A stretch of 64,000 bases of DNA, from the sequence record OR352953.1; one strand, given 5' to 3'. A program made the position numbers and the translations under genes. The notes under the pieces were generated by a model, which saw only the letters and a program-made list of their open reading frames with translations, did not search any database and was not told the DNA's origin. Below, in pieces: positions 12,433-64,000 of the stretch (position 1 is the first letter of the stretch; the number at the start of each line of letters is the position of its first letter). Source of the stretch: Escherichia phage AV123.

Positions 12433-12837
12433 ATGTGGTCTGTTAAAATCAAATATAATGCGCAGTATTATGGTGGAAAGCCTTACGAAGTTGTTATTTG
12501 TGACTGTATCTCTAAAGAAGTTGCACAGCTTTGTGGCACTGGTGTTAGTGAAGCTATGAACAAAATGCATAACTCGACTGTGCGTTACCTGGATCAAGAT
12601 ATTCCAGAAGATGTAAATGACTATGCTTACGAAGTTATTTACAGTGAAGGTAAGAAGCTCTCTATTGAAGATGCACTTAAAGCACTACCTGCTATGTGCA
12701 GCCCAACACCAGAAGCAGTTAAAGAGATTTTACCAGAATCCAACCCCGATGAATATGCCTCTATGGTTGCTTCAGACATGTGGAATCTCTGTCGAGAAAC
12801 TATGATTAAAAATCTTGTGGAAATGGCGCATGAGTAA
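12433..12837 (+). CDS. hypothetical protein (134 aa)
   Basis: track ORF; AAGGAGAG RBS. Confidence 0.6.
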   Translation: MWSVKIKYNAQYYGGKPYEVVICDCISKEVAQLCGTGVSEAMNKMHNSTVRYLDQDIPEDVNDYAYEVIYSEGKKLSIEDALKALPAMCSPTPEAVKEILPESNPDEYASMVASDMWNLCRETMIKNLVEMAHE

Positions 12838-13048
12838 AACACACTTTATACATCCGTTTGATCCAAAGAACAAGGCGGTTATACACCGCCGTTGGACTGA
12901 AACGCGCATTACAAAATGTCCTGTGCCAGCAGCACAGGAATATAACAAAACATATAAAGCAGAATTTGTGGAGTACACCTTTGTAAATAACAAAGGGAAG
13001 GAGGTTTATGTTCCAGAATACTGCCTTTGGATAAAATGGGAGGAATAA
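12830..13048 (+). CDS. hypothetical protein (72 aa)
   Basis: in-frame ATG of track ORF 12815..13048. Confidence 0.45.
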   Translation: MSKTHFIHPFDPKNKAVIHRRWTETRITKCPVPAAQEYNKTYKAEFVEYTFVNNKGKEVYVPEYCLWIKWEE

Positions 13049-31431: not shown

Positions 31432-31932
31432 TTAGTTATAAGCGTCTAATGTTCCAGTTTTAAGCACCTGAATTACACGCTCTGCGCGATTAGGCGTTTG
31501 GCGATACCATTTACTTTTACGTAAATTTATAGAGGCTTGAGTATAATATGAATTACTCACTAAAGTCAAGCTATTTTTGAAAGATTCTGCACCTTTCAAT
31601 CCCATTTGAAATACCATATTAATAATAGCCATTTTACGATTAGGACTTACTTTATCGTAAATAGGAGATAATATGGTGCTTGAATGGATTTGTTGTATCG
31701 CTTTCTTTACGTCACTCTCAAAGATTCTTCTAGCTTCCGCTTCAGTAATAACTCCATTGGTTTTTCTACCTACTAAGTTATCAAGAATGCGTATAGCTTC
31801 TGCTTTATCTTTGAGTTTTGTCAGAAGGTGTCCAATACCAACTGTCCAATACCCTTCGGTATCAGGATATACAGTTAGCTTTAGTCCTTCATCAAAACGT
31901 AACATATCAAACACATCAACTACTTTAGCCAT
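31432..31932 (-). CDS. e: T4-type lysozyme (endolysin, glycoside hydrolase family 24)
   Basis: MLRFDEGLKLTVYPDTEGYWTVGIGHLL, INMVFQMG and SKWYRQTPNRA closely match T4 lysozyme. Confidence 0.9.
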   Translation of the reverse strand: MAKVVDVFDMLRFDEGLKLTVYPDTEGYWTVGIGHLLTKLKDKAEAIRILDNLVGRKTNGVITEAEARRIFESDVKKAIQQIHSSTILSPIYDKVSPNRKMAIINMVFQMGLKGAESFKNSLTLVSNSYYTQASINLRKSKWYRQTPNRAERVIQVLKTGTLDAYN

Positions 31933-62311: not shown

Positions 62312-62581
62312 ATGTATACTTTAAAAGTAATTCGCAAGTTTCCTCAAGAAGAGGAAGTAAGAATTTATAACACCGTACCCTTCGTAGTAAATGAAGAAGA
62401 ATTCTTTTATTGCTTAGAAGATGAAGTAATTATTCAATATCATTGGGAAGGTTACGACAGACAAGATGGTGTTGTAGCTTCTGTGCTTGCTGGTGATAGA
62501 GTGTTATTCATTCACAAGACTGAATCAGCATATCTAATGAATGATAAAGGACAAACTGTTAAAGTAATTAACAGACCATAA
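62312..62581 (+). CDS. hypothetical protein (89 aa)
   Basis: in-frame ATG of track ORF 62258..62581 with CAGGAG RBS. Confidence 0.55.
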   Translation: MYTLKVIRKFPQEEEVRIYNTVPFVVNEEEFFYCLEDEVIIQYHWEGYDRQDGVVASVLAGDRVLFIHKTESAYLMNDKGQTVKVINRP

Positions 62582-62591
62582 AGAATTTTAT

Positions 62592-62620
62592 AAAAACCTC
62601 CTTTTTGGAGGTTTTTTATT
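62592..62620 (+). terminator. rho-independent terminator (AACCTCC-TTTT-GGAGGTT + TTTTTATT)
   Basis: stem-loop and T-run directly after stop 62581. Confidence 0.7.
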
Positions 62621-62687
62621 ATCTATAAAATAAAGATCTTTACAAAACGTATAAAATATGTTATCCTTAAGTAAGGAGGTGCATATT

Positions 62688-62978
62688 ATGCCTAAATTGA
62701 AAAGAGGTCGAGGTAGACCTACAGCCGAAATGCAACAGATTTATGCTATGGATGCTGCACAGGCGCAAGTAAAAGAAATTTTTGCTGGTCGTTATTTAGA
62801 TGCTATGCGTTACATTGCAGATCTTGTTGTAGATGAAAAGGCTTCTGCTAATATTAAGTTGACTGCTTCTAAGATCATCAAAGAACAAGTAGAAGAATGG
62901 CTGGAAGAACATTATGAATCTATGGAAGAAGAAGATATTCTTCCAGAAAATTCTCCCCCTCAAAAAATCGTTATCTAA
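62688..62978 (+). CDS. hypothetical protein with N-terminal KRGRGRP (AT-hook-like) motif (96 aa)
   Basis: in-frame ATG of track ORF 62658..62978 with AAGGAGG RBS. Confidence 0.55.
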   Translation: MPKLKRGRGRPTAEMQQIYAMDAAQAQVKEIFAGRYLDAMRYIADLVVDEKASANIKLTASKIIKEQVEEWLEEHYESMEEEDILPENSPPQKIVI

Positions 62979-63025
62979 TTCTCCTCTCTTGGGAACTTTG
63001 TTCCCCCTCTCCTTGTTAATTAACA

Positions 63026-63056
63026 CCCCTCTCCGAAAGGTTAGGGGGTTTTTTAT
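63026..63056 (+). terminator. rho-independent terminator (CCCCT...AGGGGG + TTTTTTATTTT)
   Basis: GC stem and long T-run after stop 62978. Confidence 0.6.
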
Positions 63057-63116
63057 TTTATACCTATTGCTTTTATATGTGTTTTTATGATATGATTAAT
63101 ACAGGAGGACTATAAA

Positions 63117-63290
63117 ATGAGAAACTATGTAGCTAAACACGATTTTAATAGGGCTTCTTATCACAGAGATAAGAAGAACAGTTATTCGCGTAAATGGGAT
63201 CTGGAGGAAGAGTTAGACTATGATTACAGAAGAACAATGGAAGGAGATTTTGGAGAATGCACAACCGATGGTAGTGAAGAAGATAGTTAA
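63117..63290 (+). CDS. hypothetical protein (57 aa)
   Basis: ATG with ACAGGAGGA RBS; not in track (<60 aa). Confidence 0.45.
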   Translation: MRNYVAKHDFNRASYHRDKKNSYSRKWDLEEELDYDYRRTMEGDFGECTTDGSEEDS

Positions 63291-63325
63291 TAATTCACCA
63301 AATCTGCCTAAAGTAAAATTTAAAG

Positions 63326-63757
63326 ATGATGATACTGACTATGTTAATAAACCTACTGAAGAATAAATGGGTTAGGTATTTTGTTCTTATTATAGCACTG
63401 TTTGGTGGTTTGTATGTTGGTTTAAACAAATTACACGATGATGTGTATGCACAAGGCTACAACGCAGGTGTTGCTAAACAAGAACAAATATTACAACAAA
63501 ACCAAATTAAAGCAAAACAGCAATTCGATATCTTACAAGCAAAAGCAGATTCAGAAAGATCTAAATTGAATGAAAAAATTCATTCATTAACGAAAGAAAG
63601 AAATGATCTTCTTACACAACTGGATAAGAAGAGCAATAACATAACACAAGAGAGAATAGATTATGCGAAAACATCTTCTGGCGCTATGTCTTGTTTTAGC
63701 CCTAATGATGACGGGTTGCGCATCATCAACAACAGCTTCCCAGCCTCTACTGATTGA
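63326..63757 (+). CDS. candidate i-spanin (Rz-like): N-terminal TM helix plus coiled-coil periplasmic domain
   Basis: track ORF; VRYFVLIIALFGGLYVGL TM segment then Q/K/E-rich heptad-like region; true start may be an internal ATG. Confidence 0.5.
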   Translation: MMILTMLINLLKNKWVRYFVLIIALFGGLYVGLNKLHDDVYAQGYNAGVAKQEQILQQNQIKAKQQFDILQAKADSERSKLNEKIHSLTKERNDLLTQLDKKSNNITQERIDYAKTSSGAMSCFSPNDDGLRIINNSFPASTD

Positions 63758-63992
63758 GCAGTGTAAAGCTGTAGCAACACAACAAATAAAAGCCCCTGAT
63801 TCTGTCAGTATGGAAAAACCCTCTACCCCTGTTTTATATACCCCTAATCAAATAAAGAAAGGAGTTACAAGATCAGAGGTAGTTGATAATCAAACTTTAA
63901 ACAACGCTTTGTGGGAAAAAGATAGGATAAAACTTATCAGTTTACAAAACTATATTAAAACATTACAAAGTGAAGGAATAATTTCTAATTAG
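63663..63992 (+). CDS. candidate o-spanin (Rz1-like lipoprotein) overlapping the i-spanin gene out of frame
   Basis: track ORF; signal plus lipobox-like LALMMTGC; starts ~95 nt before the stop of 63326..63757 in another frame. Confidence 0.5.
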   Translation: MRKHLLALCLVLALMMTGCASSTTASQPLLIEQCKAVATQQIKAPDSVSMEKPSTPVLYTPNQIKKGVTRSEVVDNQTLNNALWEKDRIKLISLQNYIKTLQSEGIISN

Positions 63993-64000
63993 GAGGAGAT

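Follow-up and report, generated by a model that had tools for sequence, protein, structure and literature searches.

A probable two-component spanin encoded by overlapping genes in a phi92-like coliphage

Two-component spanin genes have been assigned by Kongari et al. 2018 (PMC6139136) to three architectures: an 'embedded' class, in which the o-spanin gene lies wholly within the i-spanin gene (lambda, T7); an 'overlapped' class of the P2 lysB/lysC type, in which the start of the o-spanin gene is inside the i-spanin gene and its end lies past the i-spanin stop; and a 'separated' class without gene overlap (T4). Phages phi92 and phAPEC8 constitute a two-member 'Overlapped' family in that study's table of i-spanins as well as in its table of o-spanins (Tables 3 and 4). 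Table S4 of the same paper lists phi92 as 'ovl', with the i-spanin at 55669-56101, the o-spanin at 56006-56336, an overlap of 95 and a frame of +1, and its supplement describes the phi92 i-spanin as a protein of 143 aa with one coiled coil at residues 54-115 (supplementary file 4) and the o-spanin as one of 109 aa with a mature part of 91 aa. A spanin complex is also mentioned in the paper on phage BME3 (PMC12210895). No experiments on the phi92-type spanin family were found in the literature searched, and the assignments, including those of PMC6139136, are bioinformatic.

Here we examine a 64,000-nucleotide stretch of the Escherichia phage AV123 genome (OR352953.1; the window), in which an i-spanin gene and an overlapping o-spanin gene had been predicted from the sequence. 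Both ORFs exist at exactly the coordinates originally assigned to them, on the plus strand and with ATG starts, and the proposed overlap is borne out, the downstream ORF being read in the +1 frame relative to 63326..63757. The two genes and the segment they share are as follows.

63326..63757, plus strand: predicted i-spanin gene, 143 aa, phrog_4297; equivalent to phi92 gp118, annotated 'Rz-like spanin'
63663..63992, plus strand: predicted o-spanin gene, 109-aa precursor and 91-aa mature lipoprotein, phrog_1267
63663..63757, plus strand: dual-coding overlap of 95 nt, with the o-spanin read in the +1 frame of the i-spanin

We consider it very probable that this pair is a two-component spanin of a phi92-like (Justusliebigvirus) coliphage with overlapped architecture. 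The criteria used are those of Summer 2007 and Kongari 2018, which call for an o-spanin gene that is embedded in, overlaps or immediately follows the i-spanin gene; here the genes overlap by 95 nt in the +1 register. Measured in i-spanin gene lengths, the o-spanin gene runs from 0.78 to 1.54, a layout of the P2 lysB/lysC type, and it stops at 63992, 235 nt beyond the end of the i-spanin gene at 63757, so that the architecture is overlapped and not embedded in the manner of lambda Rz/Rz1.

The pair is already known, being the phi92 overlapped spanin catalogued in 2018, and in that sense it is an ordinary one. With the BLAST offset that places window position 62600 at phi92 54944, the coordinates of PMC6139136 map exactly onto 63326-63757 and 63663-63992, and the i-spanin ORF and the o-spanin ORF correspond to phi92 55670-56101 and 56007-56336, respectively. 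Over the pair the window differs from phi92 at 7 of 667 nt; the o-spanin proteins are 100% identical, and the i-spanin is near-identical to its phi92 counterpart, with some amino-acid differences, and 50% identical to the phAPEC8 protein. Membership of the phi92/phAPEC8 family was taken to require a minimum of 40% identity to members across 40% or more of the periplasmic domain, or a significant PHROG match, and on this basis both proteins belong to it; the i-spanin matches phrog_4297 'Rz-like spanin' (E 1.9e-40) and the o-spanin matches phrog_1267 'Rz-like spanin' (E 2e-20). A Pfam scan of both proteins returned no spanin family (Rz/Phage_lysis, Rz1) at E up to 1, and the NCBIfam model P2_Rz1 (NF038368) gave E 0.18 and 12 bits, below its cut-off of 27, so that membership in the spanin sequence families tested is not established. 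Weak Pfam and NCBIfam matches of the i-spanin (DUF7934 and others) reflect coiled-coil composition and were set aside. Profile searches of the PDB with both proteins gave no significant homologue, the i-spanin yielding only sub-threshold matches to coiled-coil proteins.

The genomic background had been predicted to be T4-like, which proved mistaken: the window derives from a phi92-like myovirus of the genus Justusliebigvirus (Stephanstirmvirinae), with 99% DNA identity, and not from a member of the Straboviridae. Over 62600..64000 the identity to phi92-like coliphages (arall, JLBYU50, alia, BME3 and phi92, among others) is 99.2-99.6%. The initial impression of a T4-like phage is probably explained by T4-flavoured genes such as the endolysin gene at 31432..31932, on the opposite strand and 31 kb from the spanin genes, whose product is a T4-lysozyme-like muramidase (PF00959, E 5e-12). 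The gene order at the locus is a block of 15 tRNA genes, gp114, gp115, gp116, gp117, i-spanin and o-spanin, followed by the large terminase gene, which starts at about 64001, just past the end of the window, as seen by alignment with phi92 and BME3. The spanin genes thus lie between the tRNA block and the terminase gene, with no adjoining holin or endolysin.

Within this neighborhood the small ORF gp117 (63220..63366) may also be a real gene, although we regard this as a weaker second lead; if so, gp116, gp117, i-spanin and o-spanin would form a four-gene chain in which each gene overlaps the next in the +1 frame. A scan of 62200..64000 for promoter consensus sequences gave no excess over shuffled sequences (5 vs 6.2). 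One good terminator-like hairpin was seen in a scan of the same region, at 62592..62616 upstream of gp115; it is not decisive for spanin expression.

By tblastn, each of the two spanin proteins was found in 135 phage records. Six diverged relatives were compared with the window in detail: Citrobacter phage Tr1, Klebsiella phages phi1_175008, 05F01, FBKp34 and KP13-16, and E. coli phage phAPEC8. All seven lineages have this ORF pair in the +1 register with an overlap of 80-95 nt, and neither the lipobox Gly-Cys nor one periplasmic Cys in each protein varies among them, down to about 35% identity. The invariant periplasmic residues, C123 of the i-spanin and C34 of the o-spanin, are candidate homotypic disulfide residues, such as the spanin criteria look for.

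The upstream ORF had been described as encoding an N-terminal transmembrane helix and then a long coiled-coil-like region, and a transmembrane helix leading into a long helix is what Kyte-Doolittle analysis and a single-sequence AF2 model show. AF2 models of both proteins were built in this way, and secondary structure alone was drawn from them. There is one hydrophobic stretch, residues 15-36, in which the best 19-residue Kyte-Doolittle window, WVRYFVLIIALFGGLYVGL, scores 1.84; windows exceeding 1.6 are found only within residues 15-37, and K12, K14 and R17 flank the segment on its N-terminal, cytoplasmic side. In the model, residues 14-120 form a single continuous helix (pLDDT 86-98), the periplasmic part of which is about 85 residues long, and the 23-residue tail that follows is of low confidence. 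Heptad contrast peaks at about residues 54-110. The i-spanin thus agrees with the description in the criteria of a small protein that has one transmembrane domain, at the N terminus, and whose periplasmic domain is mostly helical or coiled-coil. No obvious hinge was seen in the modeled helix; a hairpin-collapse model would require one. The features of the protein are these.

63368..63433, plus strand: predicted i-spanin transmembrane anchor, about residues 15-36 (Kyte-Doolittle; helical in the AF2 model)
63434..63685, plus strand: predicted i-spanin periplasmic helical or coiled-coil domain, about residues 37-120 (AF2, heptad contrast)
63662..63754, plus strand: i-spanin conserved C-terminal tail, residues 113-143, YAKTSSGAMSCFSPNDDGLRIINNSFPASTD (alignment of relatives)
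63692-63694, plus strand: i-spanin invariant Cys123 (i-spanin alignment)

The i-spanin alignment has 18 invariant columns, including C123; in the tail the invariant residues are Y113, K115, G119, C123, S137 and P139. The first ATG, at 63326, is supported as the i-spanin start because the N-terminal extension it provides, with the pattern ILTxLxxLxxNK, is conserved in the relatives. No strong Shine-Dalgarno sequence was found before the i-spanin start. The alternative start at 63341, as used for BME3, is less likely given the conservation of the N-terminal ILTxLxxL.

A signal sequence with a lipobox-like MMTGC had been noted in the downstream ORF, and a signal peptide with the lipobox MMTG-C is indeed present. 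The N-terminus MRKHLLALCLVLALMMTGC satisfies a lipoprotein rule of the PROSITE PS51257 type, with the Cys at position 19. Because the +2 residue is Ala, the o-spanin lacks the Asp inner-membrane retention signal, and across the seven lineages this residue is A, S, T or N. The protein thus carries a signal peptide and a lipobox Cys with no retention residue at +2, as the spanin criteria ask of an outer-membrane lipoprotein. In the AF2 model the signal peptide is helical, residues 20-68 are mostly of low confidence and largely non-helical apart from a short helix at 27-38, and residues 70-103 form a C-terminal helix with a pLDDT of about 90; the mature protein, with 5 prolines in 91 residues, is partly helical. 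Its features are listed here.

63650..63654, plus strand: Shine-Dalgarno-like GAGAG, 8 nt upstream of the o-spanin ATG and within the i-spanin coding sequence
63663..63719, plus strand: predicted lipoprotein signal peptide and lipobox, MRKHLLALCLVLALMMTG followed by Cys; Cys19 at 63717-63719, Ala at +2
63762-63764, plus strand: o-spanin invariant Cys34, upstream of the C-terminal helix
63870..63971, plus strand: predicted o-spanin C-terminal helix, residues 70-103, the segment common to rV5-type o-spanins

The o-spanin alignment contains 24 invariant columns, including G18-C19, C34 and a block in the C-terminal helix. In the N-terminal part of the protein the invariant residues are M1, K3, L14, G18 and C19, and in the C-terminal helix they are N80, N81, L83, W84, D87, R88, L94, Q95, Y97 and L101.

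Topology signals, secondary structure, conservation and dual coding can be read directly from the window and its relatives, and the steps of the mechanism that we propose are modeled on the lambda Rz/Rz1, T4 PseT.3/PseT.2 and P2 LysB/LysC paradigms as summarized in PMC6139136. The two proteins are almost certainly the inner-membrane and outer-membrane partners of a spanin, whose role would be to disrupt the outer membrane at host lysis. The i-spanin would sit in the inner membrane as a type II protein, the N terminus facing the inside and the C terminus the outside. The o-spanin would be acylated at Cys19, and the Lol pathway would carry it to the outer membrane's inner leaflet, a sorting that we propose because there is no Asp at +2. 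Each subunit may form a homodimer through its single invariant periplasmic cysteine (C123 in the i-spanin, C34 in the o-spanin), and the C-terminal parts of the two proteins are envisaged to bind each other, giving a bridge that would span the periplasm through the murein mesh. Degradation of the peptidoglycan by the T4-lysozyme-like endolysin would then leave the complexes free to move and collapse, and their collapse would lead to fusion of the inner and outer membranes as the last step of lysis.

A membrane protein and an outer-membrane lipoprotein might instead serve some other role, such as superinfection exclusion, receptor masking like that of the T5 Llp and Cor lipoproteins, or control of lysis timing. 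The remoteness of the genes from the endolysin gene, and from any holin gene that was identified, fits such a role, as does the want of a Pfam or NCBIfam spanin match above threshold, and the assignment in PMC6139136 was itself made by criteria and not by assay. We nevertheless judge it improbable, given that every structural hallmark of a spanin is present (a type II coiled-coil protein, an overlapping lipoprotein gene and periplasmic cysteines), and that large myoviruses normally have their lysis genes scattered, as in T4, whose spanin genes also lie away from holin and endolysin (PMC6139136). Moreover, the window holds no better spanin candidate, the sole other ORF with a lipoprotein signal being at about the level expected by chance.

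That level comes from a six-frame scan of the 64-kb window for lipoprotein signals, in which all starts of each ORF of 50 aa or more were considered and which identified two ORFs against 0.93 expected in shuffled sequence. The only one besides the o-spanin ORF is at 12772..12993 on the minus strand, with a TTG start and 73 aa. With two found and about one expected by chance, the lipobox alone is statistically unremarkable and was rejected as stand-alone evidence; we rely instead on position and conservation. That roughly one lipoprotein-like signal is expected by chance among the six-frame ORFs of 64 kb lends some substance to the view that the downstream ORF is an untranslated +1 ORF arisen by chance, with a coincidental lipobox, and that only the 143-aa protein is real, and it is in keeping with this view that the ORF is unannotated in the phi92 RefSeq and in many other records and is begun after the signal peptide in others. 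The comparative data make this a very unlikely account. Seven lineages, with identities as low as 37%, keep the ORF open and share its start context, and 24 of its residues are invariant; its position and its conservation in these lineages indicate that it is more than a chance occurrence. The o-spanin is also better conserved than the i-spanin: against Tr1, phi1_175008 and phAPEC8, the closer relatives, identity is about 66% for the former and about 50% for the latter.

Substitution patterns point in the same direction. Outside the overlap pN is well below pS in both spanin genes, and in the 235-nt non-overlapping part of the o-spanin gene pN is 0.21-0.30 vs a pS of 0.70-0.80. Inside the overlap pS is reduced in both frames, to 0.09-0.37 vs 0.57-0.89 outside, in comparisons with Tr1, phi1_175008 and phAPEC8; in 05F01, the most divergent of the four relatives compared, the depression is not clearly visible. 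A depressed pS in both frames is the signature expected of two translated frames that constrain each other, and these alignments show directly that both frames are, as judged from the substitution estimates, under purifying selection. One frame of the overlap specifies the i-spanin's conserved C-terminal tail, SCFxPNDDGLxIINxSFP, and the signal peptide and lipobox of the o-spanin are read from the other.

The missing annotation of the ORF in public records is explained by a known bias of gene callers against overlapping o-spanin genes (PMC6139136), for which faulty annotation is a general problem according to the same paper. BME3 and EmilieFrey carry the labels i-spanin and o-spanin for the pair, and the label given in phi92, alia, Eryne and other records is 'Rz-like spanin'. 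An o-spanin CDS is missing from the phi92 RefSeq, and in BME3, Eryne and EmilieFrey the o-spanin begins at MMTGC or MTGC, without the signal peptide needed for its export; in the Justusliebigvirus GenBank records that we checked, the o-spanin signal peptide is truncated or omitted. The correct o-spanin start is the ATG at 63663, equivalent to phi92 56007, and in this respect the original prediction, which included the signal peptide, improves on the starts given in several GenBank records. A purine-rich GAG(A/G)G-like element occurs at an equal distance before the o-spanin start in the relatives. No Shine-Dalgarno-like element was found before the internal ATGs at 63705 and 63708, which are the starts in some GenBank records, and we reject both, as the signal peptide is lost with them and such an element is lacking. 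The main value of the analysis lies in annotation quality, through correction of the o-spanin start in Justusliebigvirus records, with little significance beyond that; what it adds to the literature is the remote homology to the rV5 spanins described below, the dual coding of conserved segments and the o-spanin annotation errors.

The arrangement had been taken originally for an embedded, lambda-like Rz/Rz1 pair arisen in a T4-like genome, a reading that retains practically no credibility: an o-spanin in the +1 frame, as in lambda, and several T4-flavoured genes in the window, including the T4-lysozyme-like endolysin gene, speak for it, but it is refuted by the coordinates, which make a pair with this extension beyond the i-spanin stop overlapped by definition, and by taxonomy, the phage being a Justusliebigvirus and no relative of T4, and Pfam reveals no sequence match to lambda Rz or Rz1. 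The 'embedded-type' label was thus wrong, phi92 itself being filed under 'Overlapped' in PMC6139136, and since architecture and background were both misclassified, the surprise of a lambda arrangement in a T4 background disappears. The part of the interpretation that stands is the pair itself, an i-spanin and an o-spanin lipoprotein encoded by overlapping genes.

Among known systems, those of phi92 and phAPEC8 (PMC6139136) are the same genes; phi92 agrees with the window in protein lengths (143 and 109 aa), in the overlap of 95 nt and in the +1 frame, and there is no substantial difference. P2 LysB/LysC is the experimentally tested prototype of the overlapped architecture, and it resembles the window pair in that the 3' part of the i-spanin gene contains the start of the o-spanin gene, which is in the +1 frame and passes the i-spanin stop. 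The predicted proteins of the window also match the P2 pattern of an i-spanin anchored by an N-terminal transmembrane segment, with a helical domain in the periplasm, and an o-spanin that is a lipoprotein of the outer membrane. The two systems have no detectable sequence relationship (NCBIfam P2_Rz1, 12 bits), and whereas the P2 spanin genes form part of a lysis cassette, those of the window lie between tRNA genes and the terminase gene. The overlap in the window is also shorter than the 146 nt of the P2-family phage PsP3 (PMC6139136, Table S4).

With lambda Rz/Rz1 the window pair shares the presumed membrane-fusion mechanism, the +1 register and periplasmic cysteines for homodimer disulfides. 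Lambda Rz1 is wholly embedded in Rz, however, and its mature form of 40 aa is proline-rich and without helices, whereas the window o-spanin is partly overlapped, has 91 aa when mature, bears a predicted C-terminal helix and belongs to a pair with no Pfam Rz/Rz1 match. T4 and the window phage are both large myoviruses with spanin genes far from the endolysin gene, and T4 PseT.2 and the window o-spanin are both comparatively large, with a predicted C-terminal helix (PMC6139136, Fig. 8 legend). They differ in that the T4 spanin genes are separated, that PseT.3 has no periplasmic Cys and PseT.2 has two, and that the virus families are not the same; no sequence relationship of the window spanins to PseT.3/PseT.2 was detected.

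The most informative comparison from an evolutionary viewpoint is with the spanins of phage rV5, gp068/gp067 (Vequintavirinae), which are classed as separated and are remote homologues of the window pair by hhalign. With rV5-family sequences taken from phage 2_JES-2013, the i-spanin profile built from the seven sequences matched the rV5-family i-spanin with 96.7% probability (E 4e-10, 126 columns), and the o-spanin matched its rV5-family counterpart with 95.4% probability (E 1.9e-8) in the C-terminal helix only, the signal peptides and N-terminal linkers failing to align. The rV5-family i-spanin has a Ser at the position aligned with Cys123 of the window protein. Synteny is the same, rV5 having a tRNA block, gp069 (the homologue of phi92 gp114), i-spanin, o-spanin and large terminase in that order, although the rV5 spanin genes overlap by only 4 nt. 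Remote homology and the same gene position suggest that these are probably orthologous spanins with different architectures in two sister subfamilies, and we lean slightly toward the view that the phi92-type overlapped and rV5-type separated pairs are positional orthologues and that the rV5/phi92 supergroup records an architecture switch. Kongari et al. (PMC6139136) described architecture transitions in three other families, in which the i-spanin C-terminus encoded by the overlap has diverged; in the phi92-type pair, unlike those mixed-architecture families, the overlap encodes a conserved i-spanin tail. If the orthology is true, it would add one more to the known transitions between spanin architectures, a modest evolutionary point.

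Immediately ahead of the gene for the i-spanin, the predicted inner-membrane half of the spanin pair, lie two reading frames named here as in the related phage phi92:

63117..63290, plus strand, gp116, its 3' half overlapped by gp117
63220..63366, plus strand, gp117, a small ORF of 48 aa

The gp117 ORF also extends 41 nt into the i-spanin gene. It is described in the phi92 annotation as having 'weak Prodigal statistics', and PHROG profile comparison gave no match for it. Among the diverged relatives compared at the spanin locus, the open frame is kept in Tr1, phi1_175008 and phAPEC8, with the conserved peptide ..EEIL.NAQPM.VKKIVNNSP.LPKVKF..; the ORF is absent from the three loci of 05F01, FBKp34 and KP13-16. 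Over the 31 nt from the gp116 stop to the i-spanin ATG, differences in the gp117 frame fall mainly at third codon positions (2/1/9 versus Tr1 and 3/1/5 versus phAPEC8). Judged from these sequence comparisons, gp117 is probably a real gene, and if so, gp116, gp117, the i-spanin gene and the o-spanin gene would form a four-gene chain with a +1-frame overlap at each junction.

The o-spanin, a lipoprotein precursor, is treated unevenly in public records. Its CDS starts at internal Met codons (MMTGC.. or MTGC..) in PP239276 (BME3), PQ529420 (Eryne) and MZ501063 (EmilieFrey), corresponding to positions 63705 and 63708 of the window as opposed to 63663, and the signal peptide is lost in these CDSs because the start is so placed. 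The phi92 RefSeq record, NC_023693, has no o-spanin CDS. Several records, including MG065639, MG065656 and MG065650, bear the label 'Campylobacter phage' (A150, C3, B15) and name Campylobacter jejuni as host; in the phage collection matches their spanin genes are identical or nearly identical to those of E. coli Justusliebigvirus and Phapecoctavirus phages. These host labels look doubtful.

Three further features lie upstream of gp115:

59145..62200, plus strand, block of 15 tRNA genes, directly upstream of the region from gp114 through the spanins to the terminase gene
62592..62616, plus strand, strong terminator-like hairpin directly after gp114, a 10-bp stem (AAAAACCTCC/GGAGGTTTTT) and then a T-rich tail
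62639..62667, weak sigma-70-like site, 3' of the hairpin and before gp115

The hairpin and the sigma-70-like site may mark the beginning of a transcription unit that includes the spanins and the terminase gene. The records of phages Paula and PATM carry a 'terminator' feature, annotated by others, inside the matched stretch. Justusliebigvirus records differ in tRNA gene number and order; BME3, for example, has an additional tRNA-Met and lacks the tRNA-Ile in this stretch.

Two features elsewhere in the window bear on lipoproteins and lysis:

12772..12993, minus strand, ORF of 73 aa with a TTG start and a lipoprotein-like signal
31432..31932, minus strand, T4-lysozyme-like endolysin of 166 aa (PF00959, E 5e-12)

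In a six-frame scan of the 64-kb window, the former has the sole lipoprotein-like signal besides the o-spanin, and it is probably a chance match, since shuffled sequence gives about one expected match. The lysis genes of AV123 are scattered, as 31 kb separate the endolysin gene from the spanin pair, which is on the opposite strand; for BME3, two small class II holin candidates have been proposed elsewhere in the genome (PMC12210895).
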